Source: a virus | Taxonomy: Duplodnaviria > Heunggongvirae > Uroviricota > Caudoviricetes | IMG/VR virus record: IMGVR_UViG_3300027708_000034 | Location: 18,332-82,331 of that record | Strand: one strand, 5' to 3' | Length of the DNA: 64,000 bases | In this document: one piece after another, positions 3,011 through 62,692 of the stretch | Layout of the letters: each line of letters begins with the position of its first letter | Numbering within the stretch: position 1 is the first letter of the stretch | Translations under genes and position numbers: made by a program | The notes under the pieces: model-generated | Database searches by the model: none | Told to the model about the DNA's origin: nothing | The model's input: only the letters and a program-made list of their open reading frames with translations

Positions 3011-6000
3011 ATGAGCCGACAATGTATATCGAATTTACCAGCATTAACCAATGCTACTGCTGCTGAAACCAAATTCATCGTACTGGATAGTACTGTTGAG
3101 CAGACATTAACAGTAGCAAGAGCACAGGCGTTACTAGCAACTCCTGGTCCAACTGGACCGCAGGGACCGCAAGGTGTCATAGGATATGCCGGTAGTAGGG
3201 GATATTCTGGAAGTTTGGGATATGCTGGATCTGTTGGTCCACAAGGTCCTGCCGGCCCACAGGGTCCTATTGGGTTTACTGGCAGTCGTGGATTCTCGGG
3301 ATCAGTCGGCGCCCAAGGCCCTTTGGGATTTACGGGCAGCAGGGGATATGCGGGCAGCATTGGATATACAGGAAGTGCAAGCACCGCCTCCGGATATGCT
3401 GGCAGTAAGGGCCCAACGGGTCCACAGGGGCAAATAGGCTATGCTGGAAGTGCAGCAGCCAATGCTAACACCACACAAAATATCGCCGGCGGCGCTGCTG
3501 GATCCATTCCGATTCAAGCAGCCACCAGCAGTACTACATTTATTCCATTGGGTGCTGTAGGGACTCTACTATATTCAGATGGTACTACTGCTACTTGGAT
3601 TAGCACTAGTACTATAATACCAGCATCTTCGGGACAAGCTGGCAAGGTATTGGTTAACTGTATTGCAGCAAACAGCGCCACAACATACTATCCTGGATTG
3701 TTTTCAACTCCGGGAGTATACGACACTCCCGGAATTAGCACAAAACTATCATTTGTTGCATCCACAGGTGTCTTATCGGCACCTAAGATACAATTAGGCA
3801 ATGGAGCAGTAGTTCAAGATGGTACTAACGGATCATTGACCTTCGGCTCAGCAACATCTAATCAAGGGGTCAATGCTGTCGCTATCGGTAAATGTGCAGG
3901 TAAGACTAGCCAAGGCGCAGCCGCTATTGCAATTGGTTGCAAGGCCGGAGTTACTAGCCAAGCCGCTAACAGCATTATATTAAATGCATCTAGTCAAACT
4001 GTAAATTCCAGTGTGGCTGGATTTTTTGTAGCGCCTGTTAGACGTGATAGTACTTGTGCCGGAACAGCTTATTCAATATACTATAATACTGCCACTAGCG
4101 AAGTAACGTATTCTGCTACTGTTCCCGCTGGATATACGGGTAGTGCAAGCACCGCAGCTGGATATATAGGCAGTAGAGGGCCGACAGGTCCACAAGGTCC
4201 ATCGGGGCCTACTGGTCCAACGGGCCCACAAGGGCCATTGGGATATACTGGTAGTATTGGTCCGACTGGTGTAGGACTCAGTGGTTATTTTGGATCAAGA
4301 GGATACACTGGGTCAGTTGGCCCGACTGGGCCTCAAGGTGCTATCGGTTATACAGGCAGCATGGGAACCACAGGCACTACTGGTTATTCGGGGTCAATAG
4401 GGGTGCAGGGCCCACAAGGATATGCGGGCAGTAGAGGTTATACTGGTAGCCAAGGCTCCACTGGAACTACTGGTTATTCAGGGTCAATAGGTGCAGGCAT
4501 TGCACTCAAAGGCACCGCTGCAACTACAGGTACTGGATATTCGGGAATTTATGGAGTCGTACCCCAAGGAACTGCCGTACAAGGCGATGCTGTTTTAATC
4601 AGTTCAAACGAACATTTATGGATCAGTAGCGGTGTTAGTGGCGGCCCAAGCAACCCGTGCGGATGGTCAGACGGTGGAAGTCTAGCTGGACCGCAGGGAC
4701 CGCAGGGATATACAGGATCTGCTGGCGCAGTGGGGCCGCAGGGCCCGCAAGGAATTACCGGCCCGCAGGGACCACAGGGATATACAGGATCTGCTAGCAC
4801 TGCCAGTGGATATGTTGGCTCAACAGGACCAACCGGTCCAACTGGTCCGCAGGGGCCTATAGGGTATGCTGGATCTGCAGGTGCAGCCAGTACAATGAAT
4901 TTCAAAGGAACTGTACTTGGTGTTACCTGTTTGCCAAAAACAGGACAGACTGTTGGTAATGCATGGGTAGTTTACAATGGCGGTTCACCAGGTAGTGGAA
5001 AAAGTTCCAACGGATCTACTTGGTTCTACGTCAATGGCGCAAGTGATGCGGGAAGATGTGTAAGTTGCGGTCCTTATTATGGATTTATTTACATTGGAAA
5101 CTTTACCGGGTATACTGGTAGTAAAGGTGACCTAGGATATTCCGGATCAGCTGGGCCGCAGGGACCTTTAGGATACTCTGGCAGCGGCGGCGGCTTTGGC
5201 TGCAGAGGATATACTGGCAGCATCGGTTATGCTGGCAGTGCTGGATATTGGGGTTCTACAGGCTATGTAGGTAGCCAAGGGACTTCATTTAACATCGTTG
5301 GTACAGTAGCAGGATACTTAAACTTGCCCGGATCAGGATCTGCAGGTGACGGATATGTTACTCAGAACAACAATACTATTTGGTTGTATAAAGGCTATGC
5401 TGGATCTGCATATGCAGGTTGTGGCAGTGCATTGGGCAAACAATATAATGGATGGTTGGCTATCGGACTATTGGGTGGCACTGGTTATACTGGCAGTGCA
5501 GGATACAATGGTAGTGCAGGATATACAGGATCTGCTAGCACCCAAGCTGGTCCACAAGGACCAGCCGGATATTCAGGCAGTGCAGGAGCCGCAGGTTGCA
5601 AGGGCTGTATAGGATACACCGGCAGTGCTGGAACATCGGGTATAGGTACCAAAGGATGTATTGGATTTACCGGTAGTGCAGGTGCTGGTTACGGCGGTAG
5701 TATTGGCTCAACTGGTTATACAGGCAGTGGTGGCGCTGGATATACAGGAAGCATAGGTAACGCCGGTCCACAAGGACCAATTGGATTTTCGGGAAGTGGC
5801 GGCGCTGGATACAATGGTAGTAGAGGATATGATGGATCAGTTGGTCCTAGTGGCCCAACTGGACCTACTGGACCACAGGGGTGTATGGGATACACAGGAT
5901 CTGCCAGCACCGCATCGGGGTATGTTGGTTCAACTGGATTTACTGGCAGTATAGGTAATTTGGGATATTATGGTAGTATAGGTTGCAGGGGATATACCGG

Positions 6001-6691
6001 ATCATCTGGTGCATTACCGTGCTGTGCCGGCCCTTGTAAACTCTACGCAAGAGTTTGGTGTAGTGGTCAAGTTAGAGGACCATTGTTATATCCAACTCTA
6101 GTGGCCAGATCAGGTACATGTACTGTCTACATGTCCGGAGCAAGTCCGTCAAACTTGTTTAGCTTCTGTGCTGCTAACGGTAAAGTAACAATTGGCGGGG
6201 CAGTATGTGCCAACGGCAACATAACCTCAGCTCAAGGCGTCCGCGCCTGCGGGTCCGTAACATCTGTGCAAAAGATGTATGCCCAAGGTGCATTGTGTGT
6301 CACTGGAAAAATCTGTGCATCATCATGTATTTCTACGCTGGGTAGTGTGATTGCCGCGGGCAACGTCATTGGTTATTGTGCAGCTTCTGATAGAAGATTA
6401 AAACAAAACATTAGACCAATCGCAGACGCGTTGGATAAAATTAGAACACTACAGGGTGTATTGTACGACTGGACTGACGAGTTCATGGAAACAGTCCCGG
6501 ATAATATTTCCAGACATGATACCGGATTGATTGCCCAGGATGTTCAGCAGGTCCTACCAGAGGTAGTGTTCCTCAGAGAAAACGGATACTTGGGTATTAA
6601 GTATGACAAAGTCGTAGGATTGATTGTACAAGCAATCAACGAACTAGCAGAAAAAGTAGATGCTATAGAGAAAACTCTAGCATCGGAATAA
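3011..6691 (+). CDS. Collagen-like tail fiber/tailspike protein with C-terminal S74 intramolecular chaperone (auto-cleaving) domain
   Basis: Many G-x-y triplet runs ([20 protein letters not shown]...). The C-terminus has the SDRRLKQNI...LQGVLYDW...[15 protein letters not shown] signature of the phage fiber chaperone/peptidase S74 domain. Confidence 0.85.
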
Positions 6692-12737: not shown

Positions 12738-13409
12738 TTATACCACTTCTGGGAACAGGACTTCGTCCACAAACCGCTTCATCTTAGATTCATCTATGCC
12801 CATACTGACCATGCTGCGTATGACATGGGGGTTTTGCTTTTGATAATAGCAATAACGGTTCTGCGCCATATGGAAATCTGCTAGATCCTGCTGCGTATTG
12901 CCTACATTTAATAGATAATAATCCAAGGTTCTTGTGGCCAGCTCGCATAGATTATTCAACTCTTCCTCGGTTGATACATTGCCAGCAGCAACCATGTTGG
13001 GACTAAAAATTTGCTGAGCCCATTCTGGCAGATTCCTAGACTTACCCCACTCGTAAAACAATGCTTCGGTCCCGAACCACTTCATCATAGGATGGGCAGG
13101 ATCTCCTGCTGCGCTGAAGTCGCAGAATGCACCTGTGATTTTATTGGGACCGCAGACTGCATCAAAGCCCCAAATAGGGCTAGGATCGTTAAAGTGTGGA
13201 AATACTGTAGAGTGCAGTATATAGATATTGTGGCTCTCCCTATGGTCTACGATTTCCACATGGGCTCTGCGATATCGCGGGCTGGTCCAAAGGTCATTGT
13301 GCCATTCATAATCACTACTGATCTTGCCGTGTACAGCCTCACCGGTGGCATTGAATCTCGATTTGATATCCTCAGCTAATTTTTCAATTTTGTCCCAAAC
13401 GTTCGCCAT
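12738..13409 (-). CDS. Ferredoxin-dependent bilin reductase (PcyA/PebS/PcyX family)
   Basis: WTSPRYRRAHVEIV...ILHSTVFPHFNDPSPIWGFDAVCGPNKITGAFCDFS aligns with the PcyA core (YQTPQFRKMHLEL...ILHCVMFPEP...[20 protein letters not shown]). Confidence 0.85.
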   Translation of the reverse strand: MANVWDKIEKLAEDIKSRFNATGEAVHGKISSDYEWHNDLWTSPRYRRAHVEIVDHRESHNIYILHSTVFPHFNDPSPIWGFDAVCGPNKITGAFCDFSAAGDPAHPMMKWFGTEALFYEWGKSRNLPEWAQQIFSPNMVAAGNVSTEEELNNLCELATRTLDYYLLNVGNTQQDLADFHMAQNRYCYYQKQNPHVIRSMVSMGIDESKMKRFVDEVLFPEVV

Positions 13410-13926
13410 ATGATTCCATTATTTTAATCGCCCAGTCAAAGGCTATGTTAGCTTCATCTCCCATGTCGTCTGACAGCATACTACGCATATTAGTCATCAA
13501 CATTTTAGGATCTTCAAAGTCTAAATGTGAGTGCGGTGCGTCCACGATCTTCTTGATCATCTGCCCACCAAACAAGTCGCCCATATGCCAAGTGTATAAG
13601 TGTGCCATGATGCGTTTAGGATCATCTAGTGATCTAATGTAGCTGGCGTAATCCTTTGTCTCTTGCTTATATGTATTGTAACTACCCGTGGGTTTATCCA
13701 TGCTTTGGTAATCATCCATTATCAGTCCTGCCCGTTCAATCCCGGGCAATGCATTTAGCAATCCTGCTTTTCGAGCAGCATGTTCGATCTCTTTATACCA
13801 AAGTTGTTTTTGATAGGTAAAATCTACCCATAGTTCAAAGGGCAATGTTTTGTCAAATACTGCTTTCATGAAAGCAGTGCTTTCGGCAGCAGTGTGTTTG
13901 TCTTTGGTGAGATCTTTTAGGCTCAT
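13384..13926 (-). CDS. Heme oxygenase (short phage-type HO)
   Basis: LKDLTKDKHTAAESTAFMKAV matches HO-1 LKEATKEVHTQAENAEFMRNF. AHLYTWHMGDLFGGQMIKKI matches [20 protein letters not shown]. Confidence 0.85.
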   Translation of the reverse strand: MSLKDLTKDKHTAAESTAFMKAVFDKTLPFELWVDFTYQKQLWYKEIEHAARKAGLLNALPGIERAGLIMDDYQSMDKPTGSYNTYKQETKDYASYIRSLDDPKRIMAHLYTWHMGDLFGGQMIKKIVDAPHSHLDFEDPKMLMTNMRSMLSDDMGDEANIAFDWAIKIMESYGERLGQN

Positions 13927-14269: not shown

Positions 14270-14704
14270 TTAATCGCCTTTGATAGTTAGTACACGCGGC
14301 TTCAATGCTTCGGGTACCACGCGATCTATTTTAATGGTTAAAACACCATTTTTAATAGCGCCTTCGCCTACGATCATATGTTCAGCCAGTGTCCACGAAC
14401 GAGTAAAGTCGCGGAATGCCAAACCACGGTGTAGAAATTCAGCATCGACATCACTGTCTTTGCTGCGAACACCTTTAACGATCAATTGGTTTTGATCGAT
14501 CTCAACCGCAACTTCATCCTTGGCAAAACCTGTCACAGCGATTTCGATCTCGTAAGTATCTTCATCGTGCTTGACGATATTGTAAGGTGGATAGCTGTTG
14601 TTGATTTGATTTGCAAAACGATTTTCGAAATCGTTGAACATGGTATCAAAACCTAGTAGTGCTCTATTAAGAGCATGGGTGTCAAAACGTACTAATTGTG
14701 TCAT
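14270..14704 (-). CDS. Small heat shock protein Hsp20 (IbpA/IbpB-like)
   Basis: FDTMFNDFENRF...YPPYNIVKHDEDTYEIEIAVTGFAKDEV...VPEALKPRVLTI is colinear with E. coli IbpA (alpha-crystallin domain, IxI-like C-terminus). Confidence 0.9.
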   Translation of the reverse strand: MTQLVRFDTHALNRALLGFDTMFNDFENRFANQINNSYPPYNIVKHDEDTYEIEIAVTGFAKDEVAVEIDQNQLIVKGVRSKDSDVDAEFLHRGLAFRDFTRSWTLAEHMIVGEGAIKNGVLTIKIDRVVPEALKPRVLTIKGD

Positions 14705-14791
14705 ATTTTTCTCCTTTAAAAGTAAGTGACAACATTGGGCATTGTGCCCTATAAAGTGGGACCCTAAATAGGTATCCCACGATATTATTTA

Positions 14792-16693
14792 TTATACAGT
14801 TTCCTTAGCCTCTGCGTCAACGACTCCATCAGCCGCATCCTTTTTAGCCTGTTCTTCAGCCTTCTTGGCTGCTTCCTCGGCTTGGTTTTTCTTAGCAGTG
14901 ACTGGGTTCATGGCTTGATAAAGTTTAGGAATAGTATCTTGGATGAGTTTTACATCATCGCCCGACATGGCATCCTCAAGCGCCTTGACCGCGTCTTCAG
15001 CAGTAGCACGTTCTTCTTCAGTGAGTTGGTCACTGTATTTTTCTAGATCCTCTTTGAATCCGTTCAATGTACCTTCTGCACGATTGCGTTCCTCAATCAA
15101 CTCGCGCTGCTTCTTATCTGCTTCAGCATTGAGTTCAGCATCTTGGACCATGCGATCGATTTCCTCTTTGGTCAATCCGCTGTCGGACTTGATAGTGATC
15201 TTGTTCTCTTTGCCTGTGCCTTTATCAGCTGCTTTGATATTCATGATACCGTTGGCATCGATATCTAGCGTGACTTCGATCTGTGGAACACCTTTGCGAG
15301 CAGGTGGGATGCCTTCTAATTTGAATTCGCCCAACAATTTATTATGCTGGACGAATTCACGCTCGCCTTGGAATACTTTGATGTCCACTGCAGATTGATT
15401 ATCTTCGGCTGTTGAGAACACTTGACTATGCTTGGTAGGAATAGTGGTATTCTTTTGAATCAACTTGGCCATCACCCCGCCCATGGTTTCGATACCAAGA
15501 CTCAATGGGGTAACGTCTAGCAATAGAACGTCTGTACGTCCACCACCTAGCACATCGCCTTGGATAGCAGCACCTGCGGCCACTGCTTCGTCTGGATTGA
15601 CGTCTTTGCGAGGAGCCTTGCCAAACAACTTCTCAACTGTTTCAACTACCTTAGGCATACGTGTCATACCACCGACAAGGATAACTTCGTCGATATCGCT
15701 GGCTGTGACTTTGGCATCTGCCATAGCTGTCTTGCATGGCTCGATACTGCGTTGGATCAGTTCGTCTACCAAACTTTCCAATTTAGCACGGGTCAACTTA
15801 ACGTTCATGTGTTTAGGACCTGATGCATCTGCTGTGATGTAAGGCAAGTTAACATCGGTCTGTGCTGAACTTGACAGTTCAATCTTGGCCTTTTCTGCTG
15901 CCTCTTTAAGACGTTGTAGTGCCAACATGTCTTTCTTGAGATCAACGCCGTTGTCCCGCTTGAATTCATCGACCAAGAAGTCCATGATACGTTGGTCAAA
16001 GTCTTCACCACCCAGGAATGTATCACCGTTGGTGCTTAGTACTTCGATTTGTTTCTCGCCATCAACATTGGCAATTTCGATGATGGATACGTCAAATGTA
16101 CCGCCACCCAAGTCATATACAGCAATCTTGCGATCACGCTTGTCTGCTTTATCAACACCATAGGCCAGTGCAGCAGCAGTAGGTTCGTTGATGATACGCA
16201 ACACTTCAAGTCCAGCGATCTTACCTGCATCTTTAGTTGCTTGACGTTGCTGGTCGTTGAAGTAGGCAGGAACTGTGATAACAGCCTGCGTGACTTCGTG
16301 TCCCAAATAGTCCTCAGCAGTCAGTTTCATCTTGCGAAGTACTTCAGCTGAAATCTGTGGTGGGGCAAGTTCTTGTTCGTTGGCCTTGACCCAAGCATCG
16401 CCATTACTGGCTTCGATGATTTTGTAGGGCATCAGATCGATGTCCTTCTGCACAGCCTGTTCTTTGAACTTACGTCCAATCAAACGCTTGGCTGCATAAA
16501 TTGTGTTTTTTGGATTGGTGATTGCTTGTCGTTTGGCACTTGCACCTACCAGAATTTCATCGCTAGCATATGCAATGATGCTGGGAGTAGTCCTCGCACC
16601 TTCGCTGTTTTCGATTACTTTGGGGATACCGTTTTCAATAACGGCTACGCATGAATTGGTTGTACCGAGGTCGATACCGATTACTTTACTCAT
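14792..16693 (-). CDS. dnaK: Molecular chaperone DnaK (bacterial-type Hsp70)
   Basis: N-terminus [31 protein letters not shown], and an acidic, lid-like C-terminus. Full length 633 aa. Confidence 0.95.
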
Positions 16694-16736
16694 TTTTTCT
16701 CCTTTAAATTAAGTAAGATTTTTTGGTGTTACACCG

Positions 16737-16763
16737 TTGTAGATGCCATTAGGTCATCTACAC
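16737..16763 (-). promoter_or_regulatory. 9-bp inverted repeat with 9-bp spacer (TTGTAGATG-N9-CATCTACAC) in the dnaK leader. CIRCE-like geometry but a different sequence.
   Basis: Lies between the predicted dnaK promoter (-10 at 16772-16777) and the SD. Eight of nine arm positions are complementary. Confidence 0.45.
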
Positions 16764-16771
16764 ATTTATTT

Positions 16772-16800
16772 AGTATAGCTAGATTAGCTGGATGTGTCAA
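16772..16800 (-). promoter_or_regulatory. Sigma70-type promoter for dnaK (minus strand: TTGACA-N17-TATACT)
   Basis: -35 TTGACA (RC of 16795-16800), 17-nt spacer, -10 TATACT (RC of 16772-16777). Sits about 70 nt upstream of the dnaK ATG. Confidence 0.5.
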
Positions 16801-17038
16801 CGTGGTCCGCAGCTTTTTCGACTCCACGCATGGCTTCGTCATATTCTCTTCTACTCTTTCCCACATCGAAATTATCAGGCACAGATTCTCGGATGGCAGT
16901 TAAAATTGGATGTAATAGTTTACTTGTGATTCCTCGGCTCATGTCTTCCATGACCTCTGCAGGATCGTCACCATTGGCGATCCGTTGAAGGGCCCGACCT
17001 TTTTCGAACATTTCTACTCTAGCCGCCCATGACTCCAT
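16784..17038 (-). CDS. Orphan glutamyl-tRNA reductase (HemA) C-terminal dimerisation-domain-like protein, 85 aa from the internal Met METMESW
   Basis: RALQRIANGDDPAEVMEDMSRGITSKLLHPILTAIRE parallels the GluTR dimerisation domain (E. coli [37 protein letters not shown], B. subtilis GIVNKLLHDPVVRLKE). No catalytic or NADPH domain is present. The longer 153-aa ORF form overlaps the upstream gene. Confidence 0.4.
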   Translation of the reverse strand: MESWAARVEMFEKGRALQRIANGDDPAEVMEDMSRGITSKLLHPILTAIRESVPDNFDVGKSRREYDEAMRGVEKAADHVDTSS

Positions 17039-17042
17039 TGTT

Positions 17043-17348
17043 TCACCCGGTTTTATTTTCACGATTAGACTTAATATGATGTCCGTATTTAAGCACAAAA
17101 AAAGTAGCGTACTTTTCTGTATAAAAAGCAAATACAGCATTGGGCGCAGGTATTGGTGGATCGTTGTATGTTCTATATGGAGCAGGATGATACGCCCAAT
17201 CAAAATCGTGACCCATGATCCATCCCTGTTCTCGTAGTTCTTCAACTATGTCCAACAGTGCGGGCACTTTGATATCGTGGAGTGTTATTTGATTCATGAC
17301 CACCTTATCAAGAACATGGTCAGGTCCTGTGGTCGTTTGAAATACCAC
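17043..17348 (-). CDS. Hypothetical protein (true start probably the internal Met MNQITLHD)
   Basis: ORF in the minus-strand gene train. Its N-terminal region overlaps the upstream paralog gene. Confidence 0.4.
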   Translation of the reverse strand: MVFQTTTGPDHVLDKVVMNQITLHDIKVPALLDIVEELREQGWIMGHDFDWAYHPAPYRTYNDPPIPAPNAVFAFYTEKYATFFVLKYGHHIKSNRENKTG

Positions 17349-18321: not shown

Positions 18322-18542
18322 GTCTGCTTCTTAGGATCTTCGATTTTAGCGTCGATACAGGTGCCTTCTAGTATGGTCATCTTTCCGGCATTGGCCTGCT
18401 CAGCAACTTCCAGCATATGTATTTTTTGACTGTCGATGCTGGCTCTGCATTGTGCCTCACTTCGATAAACTGTTTGGGCCTGCATAAAATTACAGTTGCC
18501 ATTCATACAGATGAACAGCACAGGTATAAAAATTTCAATCAT
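18318..18542 (-). CDS. Small hypothetical protein with hydrophobic N-terminus and four Cys
   Basis: ORF in an ATGA-overlap chain. IFIPVLFICMNGNC N-terminal hydrophobic segment. Confidence 0.4.
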   Translation of the reverse strand: MIEIFIPVLFICMNGNCNFMQAQTVYRSEAQCRASIDSQKIHMLEVAEQANAGKMTILEGTCIDAKIEDPKKQT

Positions 18543-21784: not shown

Positions 21785-23020
21785 CTATGCGGCAGGTGTG
21801 TCAACGGCTTTTTTATTAAATTCCATCAAGGCGTTGCCTTTGCCGCCCACAGTGTTTTTATCTATAACAATTTTAACCAGTCCTCGTTCCACTAGATCCA
21901 TGGCTTCAAACTGATACGGCAGTAATATTTTTTCGATGATGTTTTTCAATCCACGAGCGTTAGTTTTAAGTTCCTTGGCTTTCTCAGCTATCTGTGATAA
22001 TGCTTCTTTTTCAAACATTAGTTCGATGCCATCTAATTTAAAAATGTATTGATACTGTTTGACAATGCTGTTCTTTGGCTCGTCCAATACCTGCACGAGA
22101 TTTTCGATAGACAATTCATCCACGTTGGTGATCAATCCAAACCTGCCTACAAACTCAGGAATCAATCCGTACTGTATAAGGTCCTTGGTGCTGACTAATC
22201 TGTAGGGGTTTTCTACCACTGTTTTATCTACAGAAGCTGAGTGGAATCCCACGCTGCGAGTATCCATACGTTTTTCGATCAGCTTGTCTAAGCCAACAAA
22301 TGCCCCGCCGCATATAAACAAGATGCTGCTGGTATCGATTTCCTGCATGTCACCGCCCGGGTGCTTACGCTTGCTGGTAGAAGGGATACGCATGATGCTG
22401 CCTTCGATCATTTTTAAGAGTGCCTGCTGTACGCCTTCTCCTGACACATCTCTTGTTATGCTGACGTTTTCGCCTTTACGTGCGATTTTATCTATCTCGT
22501 CGATATAAACAATACCCCGAGATGCTTTGGCTACATCACCATCAGCTTCGTTGATTAGTCGTGTTAGAATGCTTTCCACATCATCACCCACATAGCCCGC
22601 TTCTGTGATACCTGTGGCATCACATATGACAAAAGGCAGATCCAAATACTCGGCAATCTTTCTTGCCAGCATGGTCTTGCCGCAACCAGTAGGTCCTAGT
22701 AATAGTACATTGGTCTTTTCTAGTCGTATTTCTTTACTTGGATTGTTGATGCGCTTGAAGTGTTGACTGACTGCTACACTAAGAGCAATTTTAGCATCGT
22801 CCTGTCCGACAACATAATCGTCTAGGTAATCTTTGATCAACGTGGGATTCAAAAGATTTTTATGATCGTGAGGTTTTTTACCCTTTTCATCATTTAGTAT
22901 TTCCGAGCATAGGTCTATGCAGTCATTGCAAATAGCAGCATGTTCACCGACTATAAGTTTTTCAACATCTTCTTTGCTCTTACCGCAAAAATCGCAATTA
23001 TGATTTGTTTGTGTCGTCAC
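21785..23020 (-). CDS. clpX: ClpX ATP-dependent protease ATPase subunit (N-terminal C4 zinc finger plus AAA+ domain)
   Basis: CDFCGKSKEDVEKLIVGEHAAICNDCIDLC zinc-binding domain. LLLGPTGCGKTMLARKIAEYLDLPFVICDATGITEAGYVGDDVESIL is colinear with E. coli ClpX. Confidence 0.9.
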   Translation of the reverse strand: MTTQTNHNCDFCGKSKEDVEKLIVGEHAAICNDCIDLCSEILNDEKGKKPHDHKNLLNPTLIKDYLDDYVVGQDDAKIALSVAVSQHFKRINNPSKEIRLEKTNVLLLGPTGCGKTMLARKIAEYLDLPFVICDATGITEAGYVGDDVESILTRLINEADGDVAKASRGIVYIDEIDKIARKGENVSITRDVSGEGVQQALLKMIEGSIMRIPSTSKRKHPGGDMQEIDTSSILFICGGAFVGLDKLIEKRMDTRSVGFHSASVDKTVVENPYRLVSTKDLIQYGLIPEFVGRFGLITNVDELSIENLVQVLDEPKNSIVKQYQYIFKLDGIELMFEKEALSQIAEKAKELKTNARGLKNIIEKILLPYQFEAMDLVERGLVKIVIDKNTVGGKGNALMEFNKKAVDTPAA

Positions 23021-32422: not shown

Positions 32423-32445
32423 GATATTCCTTTGTTAAAAATTAA

Positions 32446-32479
32446 ATTATACACAAAAAGAAAGGGCCCGTCAAGGCCC
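32446..32479 (-). promoter_or_regulatory. Second compact terminator-promoter module (hairpin gggcc-TTGACG-ggccc, T-run, -10 TATAAT), near-identical in architecture to 31512-31546. Promoter for the SPFH gene.
   Basis: -35 in the loop (RC of 32469-32474), 17-nt spacer, -10 (RC of 32446-32451). Hairpin followed by TTTCTTTTT on the minus strand. Confidence 0.55.
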
Positions 32480-32574
32480 TTTGGTTGTTTTGATAATAAG
32501 GTAAGTCCTACCTCACCAAAGCCTAAGCGGCGATGGAATATAACTCGTCGTTTGCAGTTATGAAATTTGCTTGA

Positions 32575-32802
32575 TTAACGGTCATCGCCTACCGTGTTGC
32601 CGTCGCCACTATCTAGCCCAATCGATCCTGTGTCAGGCCCAACATAAAGAAACTTTGGAATAGGATTATTAAATCCTTTAAATCCTGTAAAACGATATCC
32701 TAGATTAGGAATATCCCAAAGTAAAGGTGCCCAACACACTCTTTTTACTGTGTCATCTTTGTCTACTACAACAAAATACTGTTTTACTTTTTCCAATTTC
32801 AT
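32575..32802 (-). CDS. Small hypothetical protein (ATG at 32802; the track shows a TTG start one codon upstream)
   Basis: ORF. Preceded by a GC-rich structured leader. Confidence 0.4.
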   Translation of the reverse strand: MKLEKVKQYFVVVDKDDTVKRVCWAPLLWDIPNLGYRFTGFKGFNNPIPKFLYVGPDTGSIGLDSGDGNTVGDDR

Positions 32803-32894
32803 CAAATTTCCTTATGGTGGACCTGCCGGGCACTGCCCCCGGGTCTTGGCCTCCTTCGTTTTGAAGGGATTACAACAATAACTCTTACTTATCT

Positions 32895-33131
32895 TCAATG
32901 TCTCACAGCAAACATACTGCTGATCATCGCTCTTACCAAAACTAAGTCACTTTCACATGTGACCACTATGGGTTCATCCAAATCTTCGTCATCTTCCCAT
33001 GCCTCTTTTGGAAACTGTAAAAAATCGAAAATAGTTCTAAAGGTCACAGTCCTACCTTGTGTGTAGGCCAATTCTATCACATCCACTATAGAATTTACTA
33101 TTTGTTGAGTTTTAAAATCCAAAGGAGTCAT
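32895..33131 (-). CDS. Small acidic hypothetical protein
   Basis: ORF only. Confidence 0.4.
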   Translation of the reverse strand: MTPLDFKTQQIVNSIVDVIELAYTQGRTVTFRTIFDFLQFPKEAWEDDEDLDEPIVVTCESDLVLVRAMISSMFAVRH

Positions 33132-55302: not shown

Positions 55303-57258
55303 TTACATTCCCAGTACTATGGACATTGCCACACTAAAACTTTTTAGACTGTTTACACTACTTATCGGTGTAGTACTGGTCTGGCCAGAAATCACTTTCA
55401 CAACATCTCCAGCTGATCTAGCCACAGTCAGTGTTATAGTAGTACCATTCAATGCTGTAAAATCTCCTGATCCAAACAGTATGCCATTTACATAAACTTG
55501 TGCAGTACCCGGAGTATATCCACTGGGAATAGTGAATACTGTTTGACCGGCAGTGGCTATTAGTTCTTGTATATTTAATGGTATGATCTGCTGTCCGTTG
55601 GTAAAGACGTTGCCGGCATACATGCTGCCGCCAATGCCAACCCCACCTGTTACGGTCAACGCACCAGTTAGTGTAGAACTAGCAGCGGTCAATCCAGATA
55701 TAGACATCCTAGACACACCACTGATAGTTCCACCAGCAACACCAGTAGTGGCAAAACTTGACGCATAAACAGTGCCGCCAAAGCCCGCTCCGCCAGCAAC
55801 GATCAACGCGCCGGTCTGTGTAGAAGTAGCCGATGTGGCATTGGTAACAGTAAATGCAGAGGTTACATTGCCAGTGACAGTCAAATTAGTGGCAGTTATG
55901 TTTACTGCTTGGAAACTGGTCACTCCGGTGATCGAACCGCCGGTGCCAGTTGTGGTATATGAGGTGGCTGTAACAACCGTGGCTACTATATTTGTGGCAC
56001 TGACATTTGTAGCATATAGATAAGAAACACATCTAATGACGCCAAGTCCAGAGCCTCCAACGAATCCCTGAGCATAGACAGTTCCACCAACACCCAAGCC
56101 GCCTGCTACCACTAGAGCGCCGGTCTGTGTAGAAGTGGCCGATGTGGCATTAGTAAGAGTGAATGCCGAAGTTACATTACCAGTGATGCTCAAATTAGTA
56201 GCAGTCACGGTACCAGTGACGTTGATGTTTAAACCAGAATATTGATTTACTCCGGTGATCACTCCAAGTCCACCCGATCCATAAAATGCAGCGGCGTAAA
56301 TATCACCGCCGATACCCACACCACCACGTACCTGCAGAGCACCTGTAGTGGTACTGGTACTCGAAGTGGTGTTCAATATTACGAATGTAGCTGTCGTACC
56401 AGTACTGGATGAGGAGGATGCCGCGGCATACAATCCAATAGTAGCAGTGGTGATGATCTGAGCGCCGGCAATGAATGAAGAAGTGCCGATATAAACAGCG
56501 CCACCGATGCCAACTCCGCCTGTTACTATCAATGCGCCAGTCGTAGTTGATGTTGATGTAGCAGTACTGGTTATTGTGGCCGTAGATGCTGACAAAAATC
56601 CAACACCGGTAATAAATCCACTGCCAGCTACACCGGCAGTTACGATACTGGTGGCGGTTATTACTCCACCAACAAATAATCCGCCGCCAACACCAACTCC
56701 GCCTACTACCTGTAGAGCACCTGAATTGGTACTGGTTGTGCTGGCAGTGCTGGAGATAACGAATGTGCCAGTAGTACCGGTACTGGCGGTGCCTGCCGCA
56801 GCATAAAGACCAATAGTGGCAGTGGTGATGATCTGTGCACCAGCGATGAATGACGCAGTTCCTATATAAACAGCACCACTGATACCAACGCCGCCAGTTA
56901 CCTGTAAAGCGCCAGTTGTAGTCGATGTAGATGCAACATTGCCAATTATTGTGGCAGTGGATGCTGATATGAAAGCAGCACCAGTGATAGATCCAGCTCC
57001 AACACCACCTGTTACAATACTAGTAGCAGTTATCACACCGCCAACATATAAGTTACCGCCAATACCCGCCCCGCCCCTCACTTGCAGAGCACCTGTAGTG
57101 GTACTAGTAGACGATGCCGTGCTAGAAACTACTAATGTAGTGGTAGCGGTTACTGCTCCAGCAACTCTAGTCCAAGAGTTGGTGGCTGAACTATAGGTAT
57201 AGGTAATACCGTTTAGTGAGGCAGTTTGTCCATTAGTGGGTGATAAGGGGAATGACAC
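55303..57258 (-). CDS. Fiber protein with about six tandem repeats of roughly 50 aa (TSTTTGALQVxGGVGIGGxVYxG...ATSIVTGGVG)
   Basis: Internal periodicity visible in the translation. Thr/Gly/Ala/Val-rich beta-solenoid-like repeats. Confidence 0.6.
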   Translation of the reverse strand: MSFPLSPTNGQTASLNGITYTYSSATNSWTRVAGAVTATTTLVVSSTASSTSTTTGALQVRGGAGIGGNLYVGGVITATSIVTGGVGAGSITGAAFISASTATIIGNVASTSTTTGALQVTGGVGISGAVYIGTASFIAGAQIITTATIGLYAAAGTASTGTTGTFVISSTASTTSTNSGALQVVGGVGVGGGLFVGGVITATSIVTAGVAGSGFITGVGFLSASTATITSTATSTSTTTGALIVTGGVGIGGAVYIGTSSFIAGAQIITTATIGLYAAASSSSSTGTTATFVILNTTSSTSTTTGALQVRGGVGIGGDIYAAAFYGSGGLGVITGVNQYSGLNINVTGTVTATNLSITGNVTSAFTLTNATSATSTQTGALVVAGGLGVGGTVYAQGFVGGSGLGVIRCVSYLYATNVSATNIVATVVTATSYTTTGTGGSITGVTSFQAVNITATNLTVTGNVTSAFTVTNATSATSTQTGALIVAGGAGFGGTVYASSFATTGVAGGTISGVSRMSISGLTAASSTLTGALTVTGGVGIGGSMYAGNVFTNGQQIIPLNIQELIATAGQTVFTIPSGYTPGTAQVYVNGILFGSGDFTALNGTTITLTVARSAGDVVKVISGQTSTTPISSVNSLKSFSVAMSIVLGM

Positions 57259-57271
57259 CAGTAGTTCCTAT

Positions 57272-57637
57272 TTAGAGAGGCATCCAGTCAGTAGCTGCTT
57301 CGTCCCATTGATACATTTTGCCATCAGTAGGATACGGTGTCGGTGCTTCCCAAAGCCAATTAGTAGCTTCGCTGATAGTCCATGAATTGAAGGGCCTCGG
57401 CGGGTAAAAAACATCGTGTTTCGAATCGTAGATATAGCCAATACCTGCATAATTTCCCCGTAACGCAACACCGCCATCCGGTTCACCGTTGGCATTATAA
57501 TGCACATTCCCTCGGGTATTATAGCTGGTCTGTATCCATACTCCCGGCGTATCGTCTACATAACTGTCGATAAATTCTTGTTCTGCTACGATAACTCTCT
57601 GTACTTTACCGTATGCAACTTTTGCGAAATGACTCAT
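57272..57637 (-). CDS. Hypothetical protein (121 aa)
   Basis: ORF. Preceded by the conserved 24-nt BglII-palindrome element. Confidence 0.45.
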   Translation of the reverse strand: MSHFAKVAYGKVQRVIVAEQEFIDSYVDDTPGVWIQTSYNTRGNVHYNANGEPDGGVALRGNYAGIGYIYDSKHDVFYPPRPFNSWTISEATNWLWEAPTPYPTDGKMYQWDEAATDWMPL

Positions 57638-57661
57638 TTTACTATTCCTTTTTACTATTTA

Positions 57662-57686
57662 ACTCAGATGCAGATCTGTTAGAAAG
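57662..57686 (-). repeat. Conserved upstream element ACTCA(G/C)ATGCAGATCTGTTAGAA (second copy at 62672-62697), containing the palindrome CAGATCTG
   Basis: A 24-nt match with one mismatch between the two loci. In both it sits 25-50 nt upstream (minus strand) of a gene start and is followed by TAAATAGTA...AAAGGA. Confidence 0.5.
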
Positions 57687-57700
57687 ATATATTTCCTATA

Positions 57701-58627
57701 TTAGTAGTTTTTCTTAATGACAAATCTACCGCCGCTGCCACTTCCGGAACTGGTTCCTCCAGTTCCTGCTGTACCTCTATCAGCATCGGCATTATTACCC
57801 GCAACACTGCCGCTACCGGCAGTGGTGGTGCCACTGGTAATGCCCGCGCCGCCGATGTAACCAGATCCACCTCCGGCACCCGCCCCTGCGGTGTCACCGC
57901 CACCTCCACCACCGCCAAAATATCCGCCACCTCCACCACCGCCGCCTGCGTCGCCGGAACAAAGGATACCGCCGCCGCCATTACCAAATCCCAATCCGCC
58001 GGCGGCCGAAACCCCGCCACCACCTGATCCATTACCTCCATTACGACCGCTTCCAGCAACTCCTGTTCTTCTAGATCCAACCCCGCCGGCACCCGCTGCA
58101 GATTGTGTTCCGCCATAACCTCCGATGCTGCCACTACAGGTACCGTTAACACCTGTGGCACCACCACCGGCACCACCGCCGCGTGTGCCGCTGCTGTCGC
58201 CAGATCCTCCACCACCACCGGCTACAATAATTGCTGTTGATCCAACAGCGGTCTGCATGCCTGTACCAGCGCCACCGCCTGATCCAACACGGCTTGCGGC
58301 GGTTCCAGTACCGCCGCCACCTACTATAATCTGATAATTGGTTCCAGCACTAAATGTAAAGTTACCGGTTGAATTTCCACCACCACCGCCGGCGGCACCG
58401 CTGGCTGATCCACCGCCGCCGCCCCATAGCTTGAGTGTCGTAGGAACACTATTACCGGTGGCACTTATAGTATAGGTCGTATTGGCAGTGGTTATTACTA
58501 GATCGCCATCTCCTGCCAAATCCCAAGTTGTTTTCCCAGAAACTGCTGGAGAAATCGTGAGTGTAAGAGGAAATGCTCCCATGGTTAAGGTTCCTCCTAT
58601 TCTAACGCCGCTGCCGCCGATGATCAT
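57701..58627 (-). CDS. Glycine-rich protein, MIIGG family member (308 aa)
   Basis: N-terminus MIIGGSGVRIGG. More than 45% Gly with GGGGG runs. Confidence 0.55.
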   Translation of the reverse strand: MIIGGSGVRIGGTLTMGAFPLTLTISPAVSGKTTWDLAGDGDLVITTANTTYTISATGNSVPTTLKLWGGGGGSASGAAGGGGGNSTGNFTFSAGTNYQIIVGGGGTGTAASRVGSGGGAGTGMQTAVGSTAIIVAGGGGGSGDSSGTRGGGAGGGATGVNGTCSGSIGGYGGTQSAAGAGGVGSRRTGVAGSGRNGGNGSGGGGVSAAGGLGFGNGGGGILCSGDAGGGGGGGGYFGGGGGGGDTAGAGAGGGSGYIGGAGITSGTTTAGSGSVAGNNADADRGTAGTGGTSSGSGSGGRFVIKKNY

Positions 58628-58641
58628 AATATATATATTTC

Positions 58642-59547
58642 CTAGAATATTATAGAACCTGATGCAGTGAATATGTAAAATATGGTACTGCTTGTGACAT
58701 ATTGATTGGCATTTGTAGATATTGCTGCTGCGTATGTTATTGGATAACGCACTATAACCACACCACTACCGCCAGTGGCTCCAAGATTGCCGCCACCTGC
58801 TCCACCACCGGTATATGGTTGACCGTTGCCGCCTGCTAAACTCGTACCAGATCCGCCGGATGACACACCATTTCCTCCACCACCCAAAGCACCAGTTCCG
58901 CCAGTGCCGTTGGCCATGCCACCGCCACCACCTGCAAAGTAAACTTGGCCACCACTAATTTCCCCAACACCTGCTGCTGTTGCGGTTGGTACACAAATAA
59001 ATGTAGTGGCCACGCCAGCACCGCCAGCACCGCCAGTATTTGCTCCACTAGAGCCAGCGATACCAATTCCACCCACTCCTCCTGCTCCACCACCGCCACC
59101 GCCTGCACTATTGGCAGTGATACAGCTAGTCCTAGCTCGACCACCTGCAAATCCTTGTCCCGCGATACCAGCACCGCCCGCAGTACTGCTACGGCCGCCG
59201 CCCCCGCCACCAGAGCCGCCTGCAAGCCCTGCAGTATTGAACACGCCTCCACGTCCACCGCCAGTGGCTGTTACTGCATCGATAGAAGATGCGCCGCCGC
59301 AGGTCTTTACACCGCCTGGTCCAACAACAATGCTGATTGGCGTGCCTTGGACTACTGCTAAAGTTCCAGTCAATACTCCGCCAGCGCCACCAGCTGCAAT
59401 ACCTGCATTTCCATCACCGGATTGGGGTGACCCACCGCCGCCTGCCACCAAAAAATACTGGATCGAAGGCGGTGGATTTCGTATGATAAAATCTGATATG
59501 CTAAAAGGGCCACCCCCTATTGTAACGCCGCCACCGCCGATGATCAT
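58642..59547 (-). CDS. Glycine-rich protein, MIIGG family member (301 aa)
   Basis: N-terminus MIIGGGGVTIGG. C-terminus FYIFTASGSIIF shared with paralogs. Confidence 0.55.
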   Translation of the reverse strand: MIIGGGGVTIGGGPFSISDFIIRNPPPSIQYFLVAGGGGSPQSGDGNAGIAAGGAGGVLTGTLAVVQGTPISIVVGPGGVKTCGGASSIDAVTATGGGRGGVFNTAGLAGGSGGGGGGRSSTAGGAGIAGQGFAGGRARTSCITANSAGGGGGGAGGVGGIGIAGSSGANTGGAGGAGVATTFICVPTATAAGVGEISGGQVYFAGGGGGMANGTGGTGALGGGGNGVSSGGSGTSLAGGNGQPYTGGGAGGGNLGATGGSGVVIVRYPITYAAAISTNANQYVTSSTIFYIFTASGSIIF

Positions 59548-59575
59548 AATGTATATTTCCTATATTAATAATTTT

Positions 59576-61729
59576 CTAACCACCGATTAGTTGTGCTGTC
59601 GGTGGTGTGAATGCGGCTGTATATCTAGCATAGCCTTTGGTTACTCGGTAGTCATCCATATATCCATTAAAGAAAAAGGTACCGCTTAGGTATGCTACTC
59701 TACCAATGTTATAGGGAATAGTTGCATCAGTGTATATAGCACTCGATGATGTAAAAGTCCTATCCACCACACCATTTACAAAACTTCTGAATGTGCTGCC
59801 ACTGCGGGTAACAGCAATATGATACCAAGTATTTGCGGACAATAGTATGTTGCCCCTATTGCCGACAGTGTCGCATTCCAAAATGTCCCAGCTGGTGCCG
59901 TTGCTACTAGCCCACATACATACTTGCTGTCCCCATATTTCCAATCCAAATCCCTTATAGTGTGAGGCAGTGTCAGTTCCTGGGCCTGATACGTATTTTC
60001 TAGCACTAGTATCTCCAATGTATACCCATGTTTCTATTGTAAAGTCAGCTTTTGAGAAAAGGAATGAGTGTGTGTTTGGTAAAAAACAATAATCAGTTGA
60101 TCCATTGAACTTCAAGGATGCTGTACCGTATTTGACCTGGGTAGTACTGGCCTGAGCAGAACCCACAGTGATCACATCGTTCATGGCTGCTGAATCATAG
60201 ATGCCAGCGTTGGCAAAATTGAGTAACAATTGAGTATTAGTCACTGTTGTTAGTGGAGTAGTCGGAGGGGTAAAGTTACTGGTATAGACTGCCGTGCCTT
60301 TGACGATGCGAAGATCGCTAAGGTATCCATTGTATTGAAAATTGACTGTACCTACATCGTCGTACCCAATTCTCAGAGTCTGCGCAGCCGAACTAGGAAG
60401 TGTTATGGTAGTTGGGCCCGCTACTGAAACTCCGTTGACATATATCCTTGCGCTGCCGGCATTACACACCACTGCTATATGATACCAATTGTTCAATGCT
60501 ATAGTACCGGATGGAGCTCCAATGAGGGTTCCGGGGCTACCATATGGTCTATACCATCCAAAACTTCCGTTGTTGTCGTACCCTATATCCCAGCCAGCAG
60601 CATCACCGTTGGCGCCTGCCATTAGTAATCGGCATTGATTTCCCGATGTAGGAGTAGCCATAGAGTACATCCACCATTCTATGGTCCATGTACTGCTAGA
60701 TAAGTCAAACACACTAGATGACGGAAGTGTTAATTTATCTCCACTGCCATTGAAGTACGCACTAGTACCAATTGTGCCGGCAGTATATTCAGTTTGGCCA
60801 TTTCCAAAAGGACCAAAACGTTGGATACTTGGATTGCTAACTGTGGTTACAGCAAAGGCATTGCTACTTCTATCGATGATTCTATTATCTTGGAACAACA
60901 ATAACTGTACACCCGAGGCTCCTTGACTAGTTGTTGTTACGGCAGCAGTTGGTGGTGTGAATATGGTAGTTCCAGCAGTGGTACTGGTAGTAGAGTACGA
61001 GGTAGGTACAGCGCCGATACACATCCTGAAATTGCTTATATACATTTCAGTTAAATCTCCGCCCAGTTGTGAGTTGGTTCCAAAGCTGGTATTTGAAGTT
61101 CCGTTAATGTTGGTTGAGTTTGCAGTGGCTTCGCGCAGTATTCCATTTACAAATAATCTAAGATATCCGTTTTGTCTAGATGACACTACATGTATCCATT
61201 GTCGAACATGCCCTGAACCGTTGGTGCCAGTGGTATCGTATGTTGCACTATTATATGTTTGACTATTGCCGTCGACTAGTGTTTGTATCAAGGTATCAAC
61301 AGTACCAAATGCCAATTCAACACCTATGCTGCCTGCTAGACCGTAGTTACTCTGATGACTCCAGACTCGGGTATAATTCGCCGGCTGTTTTGCTATGTAT
61401 AACCAGCACTCGATTGAAAAATCTCCAGTACCAATTGCTCTGGTAGCGCTGTATGGCAAATAAGCATAGCTGCTGGTACCGTTGGTATACAAACTCCAAT
61501 TATTACCATACGGGCTAAATGAACCCTGTGTTGTTGTACCAGTACGAGTGATAGAGAAATTGTTAGAGGAAGAATCTAAGAAAGTATTATTCTGTGCAGC
61601 GTTGGCACCATCTCCATAAAATAGTGCAGTTACATAATTGAATTGAGCGTCAGTTGGCGTTGGTACAACAGCAGGTCCTAATATTTGTACCCTACCTTGT
61701 ATTACAATTCCACTACCGGTGATAATCAT
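59576..61729 (-). CDS. Structural protein (717 aa) sharing the MIITGSGI N-terminus of the Gly-rich family but with a large non-Gly-rich beta-rich body
   Basis: N-terminus MIITGSGIVIQG. T/S/N/G-rich lectin/fiber-like body. Confidence 0.55.
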   Translation of the reverse strand: MIITGSGIVIQGRVQILGPAVVPTPTDAQFNYVTALFYGDGANAAQNNTFLDSSSNNFSITRTGTTTQGSFSPYGNNWSLYTNGTSSYAYLPYSATRAIGTGDFSIECWLYIAKQPANYTRVWSHQSNYGLAGSIGVELAFGTVDTLIQTLVDGNSQTYNSATYDTTGTNGSGHVRQWIHVVSSRQNGYLRLFVNGILREATANSTNINGTSNTSFGTNSQLGGDLTEMYISNFRMCIGAVPTSYSTTSTTAGTTIFTPPTAAVTTTSQGASGVQLLLFQDNRIIDRSSNAFAVTTVSNPSIQRFGPFGNGQTEYTAGTIGTSAYFNGSGDKLTLPSSSVFDLSSSTWTIEWWMYSMATPTSGNQCRLLMAGANGDAAGWDIGYDNNGSFGWYRPYGSPGTLIGAPSGTIALNNWYHIAVVCNAGSARIYVNGVSVAGPTTITLPSSAAQTLRIGYDDVGTVNFQYNGYLSDLRIVKGTAVYTSNFTPPTTPLTTVTNTQLLLNFANAGIYDSAAMNDVITVGSAQASTTQVKYGTASLKFNGSTDYCFLPNTHSFLFSKADFTIETWVYIGDTSARKYVSGPGTDTASHYKGFGLEIWGQQVCMWASSNGTSWDILECDTVGNRGNILLSANTWYHIAVTRSGSTFRSFVNGVVDRTFTSSSAIYTDATIPYNIGRVAYLSGTFFFNGYMDDYRVTKGYARYTAAFTPPTAQLIGG

Positions 61730-61746
61730 TTGTATTTCCCTTATTT

Positions 61747-62649: not shown

Positions 62650-62692
62650 TGTGTCAACTGTCCTTTGTACTATTTACTCACATGCAGATCTG

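Follow-up and report, generated by a model that had tools for sequence, protein, structure and literature searches.

A structured mRNA leader resembling ROSE_3-type elements precedes dnaK and hsp20 in related phages

We analyzed a stretch of viral DNA of 64,000 nucleotides (nt; positions 18,332 to 82,331 of the IMG/VR record IMGVR_UViG_3300027708_000034, Caudoviricetes), called the window below, in which a dnaK gene and, directly downstream of it, an hsp20 gene are encoded on the minus strand. Between the predicted dnaK promoter and the Shine-Dalgarno (SD) sequence of dnaK lies an inverted repeat that an earlier sequence-only reading had taken for a possible repressor operator with the geometry of CIRCE, the element of HrcA-controlled chaperone genes. 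We found that this repeat is the stem of an RNA hairpin, here hairpin I, in a structured mRNA leader that stands before both dnaK and hsp20 in the window and in related phages, and that the leader resembles the ROSE_3 family of RNA thermometers. The two genes and the parts of the dnaK leader are listed first.

14792-16693, minus strand: dnaK coding sequence, 633 amino acids (Pfam HSP70, E 1.6e-256)
14270-14704, minus strand: hsp20 coding sequence, 144 amino acids (Pfam HSP20, E 3.1e-15), directly downstream of dnaK
16772-16800, minus strand: predicted sigma-70-type promoter of dnaK, TTGACA (16800-16795), 17 nt, TATACT (16777-16772), then aaATAAATg; 11 of 12 consensus matches
16738-16762, minus strand: dnaK hairpin I (P1), the noted repeat; UGUAGAUG (16762-16755), bulged A (16754), CC (16753-16752), loop UAAU (16751-16748), GG (16747-16746), CAUCUACA (16745-16738)
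16725-16735, minus strand: dnaK hairpin P2, GGUG UAA CACC; optional, present in part of the family, an insertion relative to the covariance model R1 described below
16699-16717, minus strand: predicted dnaK hairpin II in the register of ROSE_3; anti-SD CUU-A-CUU (16717-16711) with bulged A (16714), loop AAUUUA, SD AAGGAG (16704-16699); 6 pairs plus the bulge

Along the minus strand, TTGACA, its 17-nt spacer, and TATACT are followed after 9 nt by the repeat and then by AAGGAG and the ATG (16693), with the linkers aaataaatg after TATACT, ac before P2, aaaaaau after P2, and aaaaa between AAGGAG and AUG. The repeat, TGTAGATG/CATCTACA, consists of two 8-nt arms (16738-16745 and 16755-16762) that are 100% complementary and 9 nt apart, and it is the sole inverted repeat found between 16600 and 16900. 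On the plus strand, 16737-16745 reads TTGTAGATG and 16755-16763 reads CATCTACAC, around the spacer CCATTAGGT; the ninth arm position is unpaired (T16737 against C16763), hence the 8/9 complementarity of the 9-N9-9 repeat described earlier, whose position between promoter and SD the repeat search and the sequence also bear out. As RNA, the 25-mer of hairpin I has a minimum free energy (MFE) of -12.2 kcal/mol (z = -6.9), and 0 of 200 shuffles fold equally well. Hairpin I begins about 9-10 nt past the -10 box; by its sequence the promoter would be functional, with a probable start site at about 16765-16766, which would place the beginning of hairpin I near +3. We considered an intrinsic terminator of the upstream gene and set it aside, as the sense strand has no U-tract after hairpin I or P2 and a terminator scan lists none there.

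A leader of the same architecture spans 14699-14785, before hsp20, and reads from 14780 to 14711 as hairpin I, then GGGCACAAUGCCC, CUUACUU, and AAGGAG. Its features are as follows.

14791-14820, minus strand: predicted sigma-70-type promoter of hsp20, TTGACG, 18 nt, TATAAT, 11 of 12 consensus matches; extends into the end of dnaK, with AAATAATA next downstream
14756-14780, minus strand: hsp20 hairpin I (P1), GUGGGAU, bulged A (14773), CCU, AUUU, AGG, GUCCCAC; -12.5 kcal/mol
14737-14749, minus strand: hsp20 hairpin P2, GGGCA CAA UGCCC
14711-14726, minus strand: hsp20 hairpin II, predicted by MFE; anti-SD CUU-A-CUU (14726-14720), loop UUA, SD AAGGAG (14716-14711)
14696-14732, minus strand: hsp20 outer helix, predicted by MFE with moderate support; UUGUCA (14732-14727) with UGACA(C)AA (14703-14696), around hairpin II, with the start codon masked

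The outer helix recurs in other hsp20 leaders with differing sequences (UGUCAU/AUGACA, UGAUUC/GAAUCA, UUGUUC/GAACAA), and the predicted pairing probability of the SD in the hsp20 leader of the window is 0.61 at 20°C and 0.42 at 45°C. In the window, the string CU[UC][AG]CU..AAGGAG..ATG is present at exactly two sites, those upstream of dnaK and hsp20, and related loci have it upstream of these genes too; a design scan of the window found no further intergenic copy of the bulged hairpin.

For comparison we used the 80 best (77-91% DnaK identity) of 452 IMG/VR contigs that encode a related DnaK (loci L001-L080). Their upstream regions are very divergent in sequence and share one architecture: hairpin I, sometimes a second small GC hairpin, a near-invariant (A)UCUUGCUU or (A)UCUUACUU, AAGGAG, and ATG; at the position of P2, homologues carry GGGCAnnnUGCCC, GGACAUAGUGUCC, or GAGCAUAGUGCUC. 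The leader is present before hsp20 as well in most related loci. In the window it lies in the 5' untranslated region, between the predicted promoter and the ATG of each gene, and among the relatives it precedes only these two genes. Pooling dnaK and hsp20 leaders, we parsed 111 sequences, of which 93 distinct ones were used for covariation; the set includes 47 distinct hsp20 leaders.

In hairpin I, the basal stem has 4-12 bp and unrelated sequences among leaders (for example, GUAGAU/GUCUAC, UCAGAU/GUCUGA, GCUUCGAU/GUUGAAGC, GUAAAUUGU/GCAAUUUAC, and GUGGGAU/GUCCCAC). A single purine is bulged, without exception on the 5' side (G in 67 leaders and A in 35). Of 93 leaders, 60 have U.G and 23 have C-G directly under this bulge, and all 93 have C-G as the first apical pair, followed by C-G or U-A; the loop has 3-7 nt. 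The distance from arm to arm runs from 7 to 14 nt and equals the 9 nt of the window in only 38 of 103 homologues.

Both sides change in 16 of the 18 pairs of hairpin I. Compensatory cells number 357, whereas column shuffles give 100 ± 14 and none of 500 reaches 357; the covariation score is 0.469 against 0.133 in shuffles and 0.04-0.09 in slid registers. The 93-leader alignment was fitted to the structure by construction, and running the parser on shuffles served as the control for this fitting: it returned a mean of -10.6 kcal/mol for real leaders against +0.4 for 666 dinucleotide shuffles, none of which reaches -12.2. In a covariance-model alignment, 8 of 10 pairs of hairpin I vary on both sides and 95% are paired. 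An alignment of all leaders with MAFFT misaligned the 5' arm and was set aside in favor of a cleaner subset, on which the model was built. Of 967 stem cells, 94 are G.U pairs, and the sense strand folds better than the antisense strand in 80 of 93 hairpins I and worse in 4.

The noted repeat is the stem of RNA hairpin I. Since the helix is asymmetric and strand-specific, with variable spacing and free arm sequence, it is an RNA helix and not an operator read by a protein in DNA; the RNA-level stem-loop that the sequence-only reading had named as its alternative is upheld by this covariation and these strand-specific features. The operator that it had put first, a double-stranded repeat on which a dimeric host or phage repressor, HrcA-like or other, blocks transcription in the manner of CIRCE, fits the copy of the window taken by itself, a perfect palindrome (8 bp, spacer 9 nt) that directly follows the -10 box and both single strands of which fold almost equally well. 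The homologues, however, do not bear such an operator out. Spacing varies; the bulge sits on one arm only; the U.G pair becomes an A.C mismatch on the other strand; the arms are unrelated among homologues while the motif downstream is invariant; and many hsp20 copies are intergenic without a promoter motif. The arms were correctly said to differ from CIRCE, as the window holds no TTAGCACTC-N9-GAGTGCTAA even with 3 mismatches, and there is no likeness to the CIRCE consensus. Further copies of TGTAGATG-N9-CATCTACA, for which a search had been proposed, are absent from the window apart from the site itself, and half-sites are not enriched (6 against 2.7 expected), so that a shared DNA operator sequence was rejected. 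We regard a DNA operator as very improbable.

A covariance model, R1, was then trained on 24 leaders, all from phages other than that of the window, and encodes hairpin I together with hairpin II in the ROSE_3 register. Run over the 64-kb window with filters off, R1 recovers the dnaK leader (16761..16688, 27.8 bits, E 1.5e-4), placing the repeat on its hairpin I, and the hsp20 leader (14751..14699, 26.1 bits, E 3.8e-4); the next-best match has 16.1 bits. Over 86 sources R1 gave 135 matches at E <= 0.01, all on the sense strand and all ending at the start of dnaK or hsp20. A functionless palindrome that arose by chance would fit the bare count, as about one perfect 8-bp inverted repeat at a given spacing is expected in 64 kb (estimated as 64,000/4^8), but it is at odds with the fold z-score, the compensatory changes in about 100 leaders, and the finding of the site by an independent model. 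Conservation in about 100 homologous leaders excludes chance, and the probability we would still assign to it is negligible.

Hairpin I is consistently linked to the anti-SD motif and to the phage genes dnaK and hsp20. In cultured phages, R1 matches 15 of 15 tested hsp20 upstream regions just before the ATG, namely those of P-TIM40, P-SSM2, S-CAM8, ACG-2014f, Syn9, S-RIM2, S-ShM2, P-RSM3, S-SSM7, S-CAM1, the Pelagibacter phage Mosig, the Methylophilales phage Melnitz, the Pseudomonas phage Cassandra, the Salicola phage SCTP-2, and an unverified 'Campylobacter' record. The hsp20 leader of Syn9, for instance, reads GAAU-G-CC-UUCG-GG-GUUC ... CUCGCUU-AUA-AAGGAG. Two of these are jumbo phages outside Kyanoviridae, with R1 scores upstream of hsp20 of 26.5 bits (Cassandra, L173, 209-264) and 18.0 bits (SCTP-2, L174, 121-189). 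Because R1 matches both, the leader travels with phage hsp20 across phage families.

The structure of the leader resembles that of ROSE_3 (RF02523), which we take to be the short ROSE-like thermometer, with two hairpins, found on Pseudomonas ibpA (Krajewski et al. 2013). By definition, ROSE elements have 2-4 hairpins and a U(U/C)GCU anti-SD that occludes the SD through an imperfect duplex in which a G is bulged (PMC3669281; PMC11342760). ROSE_3 matches relatives that lack P2, namely Melnitz (34.1 bits, E 2.9e-4), the hsp20 leader of L033 (32.2 bits), the hsp20 and dnaK leaders of L046 (29.9 and 27.7 bits), and the hsp20 leader of L019 (29.5 bits); these matches cover the full model length in the correct orientation with the ATG aligned, at E values from 2.9e-4 to 0.12. 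The hairpin I consensus of ROSE_3, ugCGgGAU-G-CCG..CGG-GUCcCGca, has one bulged G over a CC/GG-capped loop, a core as in P1, and GGGAU-A-CC..GG-GUCCC in the hsp20 leader of the window matches it almost base for base. Hairpin II of ROSE_3 is CUc-G-CuGA/UCaG-gAG, a bulged-G anti-SD with AGGAG, and the phage CUU-G-CUU/AAGGAG aligns there. UUGCU or UCGCU is present in 74 of 111 related leaders and in all printed alignments of the matches in cultured phages, and the phage motif varies (CUUGCU/CUCGCU) at the same position as the ROSE motif.

At gathering thresholds, Rfam finds only tmRNA and tRNAs in the window and 18 related loci, and no match of the leaders to the Rfam models ROSE or ROSE_2 was detectable. 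Matches to preQ1-II and freshwater-2 were weak (15-22 bits), depended on the AAAGGAGAAAA-ATG stretch, and were discarded. On these sequence comparisons we consider the leader detectably related to ROSE-like thermometers of the ROSE_3 type, its closest Rfam family; it is not a member by the Rfam criterion, as its score falls short of the gathering threshold and A takes the place of the required G in the window. The apparent new operator would then be a known RNA class that is missed at current Rfam thresholds. The link to heat-shock regulation made in the sequence-only reading was right, but the system that the element resembles is ROSE and not CIRCE/HrcA.

We therefore favor, as a probable reading that is some way from certain, a ROSE-like thermometer leader on phage dnaK and hsp20, with hairpin I as a stable accessory. 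The leader would be transcribed from the promoter just upstream, with hairpin I lying within a few nt of the 5' end. Hairpin I (stable, with one bulged purine under a C-G/C-G-capped loop) would be followed by the small GC hairpin P2 and then by the weak hairpin II, in which CUU-A-CUU is predicted to pair with the SD AAGGAG around one bulged purine, and the region of the start codon can pair with the leader too. In the cold, hairpin II and the pairing of the start codon would restrict access of the ribosome; warming would melt both and allow more translation of DnaK and Hsp20. In this model, hairpin II would be a marginal helix that opens at temperatures found in lakes and oceans. Hairpin I, if it behaves like its counterpart in Pseudomonas ibpA, would not itself be the temperature sensor but would help the labile hairpin fold, and it may protect the 5' end from decay. 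In that bacterial leader, hairpin I is stable and temperature-insensitive, its disruption de-represses, and a role in transcript stability was proposed (PMC3669281).

Folding predictions are consistent with such a switch. Hairpin II can form in the ROSE_3 register in 111 of 111 leaders with 6-7 bp and a bulged purine, and the free energy predicted for it averages -2.0, -0.9, and +1.1 kcal/mol at 10, 20, and 37°C, respectively; in the dnaK leader of the window it is predicted to be -2.9, -1.5, and +0.8 kcal/mol. The ROSE_3 alignment supplied this bulged-purine register, which replaced a first anti-SD:SD register with a G-G pair and a C-A mismatch.

Several results weigh against a thermometer of this kind. 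The own leaders of the window have no ROSE match even at E < 10, and both carry UUACU, with A replacing the G of the defining U(U/C)GCU; the ROSE_3 scores of the relatives, 27.7-34.1 bits, are under the gathering score of 43. Hairpin II is pairable in 100% of 104 leaders, but its pairs are invariant or change on one side only, so that covariation is silent either way. In the dnaK leader of the window, the predicted ensemble leaves the SD mostly open (probability of being paired 0.17 at 20°C) while the motif pairs with codons 1-3, and the RNAfold MFE structure joins UUACUUA to UGAGUAA of the start region and not to the SD. Duplexes between a leader and its own coding sequence are predicted to be only moderately stronger than those between crossed partners (-6.6 against -5.2 kcal/mol for dnaK, -5.7 against -4.2 for hsp20), and leader and coding sequence have 6.0 expected pairs against 3.3 with shuffled leaders, of which about 20% do equally well. 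Most hsp20 copies, finally, lack a nearby promoter motif, so that hairpin I is not at the 5' terminus in every case and such a position cannot be its sole rationale.

The pairing with the coding sequence deserves separate mention. In dnaK leaders the anti-SD motif is also complementary to codons 1-3, and the MFE prefers that pairing. As the main cause of the conservation of CUUGCUU, this explanation was weakened, as hsp20 keeps the motif with unrelated coding starts and the controls were only moderately worse. A hand tally of dnaK leaders, comparing position 4 of the anti-SD with codon 2 (16714 and 16688 in the window), gave about 44 G/AGC, 8 A/AGU, 3 A/AGC, and 1 G/AGU; the motif could also pair codons 1-3, and this association may be phylogenetic or reflect an alternative conformer.

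The position of the leader on the transcript bears on another explanation, in which the leader is a structural element alone. ATAAAT[AG] ends 0-9 nt before hairpin I in 39 of 56 dnaK leaders, and a sigma-70-like -35/-10 pair is found in only 9 of 56. ATAAAT[AG] is the core of T4-type late promoters. The window has TATACT plus an overlapping ATAAATG before hairpin I, and the expression class of the leaders may differ between phages. A position after the -10 box or ATAAAT[AG] fits a 5'-proximal hairpin. We also considered TGCTT as a T4 MotA box and rejected it, as the start would fall inside dnaK given the -10 distance and hsp20 leaders have the motif too, with constant spacing to the SD.

A 5'-proximal hairpin I, with or without P2, could protect the mRNA from decay that depends on the 5' end, or could mark a processing site, with CUUGCUU and the SD serving as constitutive tuning of translation and not as a physiological switch for temperature. 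Besides this placement of hairpin I and the stabilizing role already proposed for its counterpart in ibpA (PMC3669281), the largely open SD predicted for the dnaK leader of the window is in line with such a function. A generic stabilizer, however, needs no invariant C-G, no purine bulge, and no U.G or C-G closing pair, its exclusive tie to two chaperone genes and an anti-SD motif would be unexpected, and the leader resembles a family with demonstrated thermosensing. We consider a role in stability alone to be the less probable account, with a chance that is small and still appreciable.

The two bulges, which are 16754 and 16714 in the dnaK leader of the window and 14773 and 14723 in its hsp20 leader, vary together. 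Among 103 leaders, the bulge of hairpin I and that of the anti-SD are G/G in 67, A/A in 34, and mixed in 2. The A/A type occurs in at least three separate clades of a neighbor-joining tree of DnaK, and dnaK and hsp20 leaders agree in type in every doubly typed phage except L037, the dnaK leader of which is mixed. Bulged-purine hairpins are classical protein sites, as in the coat-protein operators of RNA phages. Both helices could be bound by a protein acting in trans on the RNA and encoded by phage or host, such as a translational repressor, so that control would run through a factor and not through temperature alone; the elements that they share (U.G or C-G, bulged purine, C-G, then C-G or U-A) and the co-variation itself point in this direction. 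No candidate protein emerged, however, the co-variation may come from recombination of whole leader modules between phages, and bacterial ROSE elements of the same architecture function in vitro without protein (PMC3669281). An RNA operator of this kind seems unlikely to us. Similarly doubtful is a broader version in which one trans-acting reader of both bulges, be it a phage or host RNA-binding protein or the ribosome, or hairpin I as a mimic or decoy of the SD helix, would gate chaperone synthesis by a factor plus temperature.

Returning to the thermometer leader that we favor, its origin can be approached through the genes that carry it. The closest bacterial DnaKs are beta- and gammaproteobacterial, with 64-74% identity to the DnaK of the window, and the phage DnaKs are much closer to each other (77-91% to that of the window) than to any bacterial DnaK compared (L086-L165). 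The Hsp20 of the window is 30-38% identical to Hsp20 of cyanophages and pelagiphages, and hsp20 is a core gene of T4-like cyanophages (PMC3037559). We tried the possibility that the leader was inherited with a bacterial dnaK, and the motif was in 0 of the 79 closest bacterial dnaK upstream regions that had enough upstream sequence, so the leader did not arrive with dnaK. Among these bacterial regions, some of those read by eye contain CTTGAA-type elements that looked sigma-32-like. From these sequence comparisons, the leader appears to be a phage hsp20-type leader duplicated onto an acquired dnaK.

The source of the window is, by its gene content and the likeness of a 1049-amino-acid virion protein to its counterpart in the Synechococcus phage S-CAM1 (52% identity), a T4-like (Kyanoviridae-type) phage. 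The window also encodes ribonucleotide reductase, baseplate-wedge and virion proteins, a collagen-repeat fiber, and a permuted tmRNA; a megablast of 14700-17300 against INPHARED was empty, and no close relative was found among deposited phage genomes. The cyanophage-like structural genes stand in contrast to the beta- and gammaproteobacterial-like DnaK. Genes for heme oxygenase and a ferredoxin-dependent bilin reductase (12738-13926, minus strand) adjoin hsp20 and dnaK; this pair, which acts in pigment synthesis, is typical of cyanophage-like genomes. Directly upstream of dnaK, a 153-amino-acid open reading frame (16784-17245, minus strand) contains the dnaK -35 box inside its last codons and has only a weak Pfam match, to a GlutR dimerization domain (E 2.3e-6). 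In one relative (L016, 1-6176), dnaK lies inside an array of at least 16 tRNA genes.

Elsewhere in the window, the permuted tmRNA is of the two-piece type (32432-32907, minus strand; tag ANDELYSIAA; Rfam tmRNA_permuted, 122.6 bits). A 411-amino-acid AAA+ protein (21785-23020, minus strand) matches PHROG families of ATP-dependent proteases and ATPases, its N-terminus matches a short protease family, and by sequence it may be ClpX-like; the R1 scan of the window found no chaperone leader upstream of its gene. The collagen-repeat protein has 1226 amino acids (3011-6691, plus strand) and a C-terminal endosialidase-chaperone domain. The part of the window from 56 to 64 kb is GC-rich (0.50 against about 0.42), and from stretches rich in GGC and GGT we infer glycine-rich repeat genes in 56000-64000.

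The leader stands before hsp20 in marine cyanophages, pelagiphages, a Methylophilales phage, and a Pseudomonas jumbo phage, and in a large group of freshwater phages it stands on dnaK as well. If it is a working thermometer, translation of phage chaperones would be gated by temperature in some of the most abundant viruses of oceans and lakes, which would provide a concrete link between water temperature and the physiology of phage infection, extend ROSE-type control to dnaK and to viruses, and add natural thermometers predicted to switch at about 10-30°C. RNA thermometers usually switch at 30-42°C. We found no description of the regulation of cyanophage hsp20 in the searchable literature, and no paper on a ROSE-like element or any thermometer on phage hsp20 or dnaK, in a search that covered the literature incompletely. 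What is new would be the occurrence in viruses, dnaK as a target, the insertion of P2, the variant with a bulged A, and a predicted switching temperature that is low.

Set beside known systems, the element shares with CIRCE/HrcA an inverted repeat between promoter and chaperone-gene start and, in the dnaK copy of the window, the 9-nt spacing; CIRCE, however, is a conserved DNA sequence read by a repressor, whereas the phage element is unconserved in sequence, variable in spacing, asymmetric, and strand-specific. Phage-borne thermometers are known from lambda cIII and from the fourU in the 5' untranslated region of blyA of prophage SPbeta (PMC10586365), where, as predicted here, a structure in a phage mRNA leader gates translation by temperature, but these belong to other structural classes and serve other genes (lysis-lysogeny, autolysin) and not chaperones.

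Among bacterial elements, the classical ROSE elements (ROSE1 of Bradyrhizobium japonicum hspA; E. coli ibpA) likewise have several hairpins before a labile 3' hairpin, a U(U/C)GCU anti-SD, a critical G opposite the SD, and translational control of heat-shock chaperone genes (PMC3669281; PMC11342760), but they consist of 3-4 GC-rich hairpins over about 100 nt and are chromosomal, in alpha- and gammaproteobacteria. For the A-bulge variant of the window there is a precedent in avalong of Anabaena variabilis, a functional ROSE-like element whose anti-SD bulges U90 and not G (PMC4152365); it differs by a long first hairpin with a large loop and by its cyanobacterial chromosomal gene, and is likened here by architecture alone. 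The differences from ROSE_3 are that the phage leader is AT-rich, that P2 is inserted between hairpins I and II in the clade of the window, that A and not G is bulged in both hairpins of the window, that the phage hairpin II is much weaker, with its predicted free energy changing sign between 20 and 37°C, that the start codon of phage hsp20 leaders would also be masked by the outer helix, and that the carriers are phages with dnaK as one target. What the two have in common is a place in the 5' untranslated region ahead of a small heat-shock gene, a hairpin I that is stable, bulges one purine, and has GAU-G-CC...GG-GUC as its core (GAU-R-CC..GG-GUC when the leaders of the window are included), a 3' hairpin predicted to pair CU(U/C)-G-CU with AGGAG around a bulged purine, and an ATG, often ATGAC, a few bases on.

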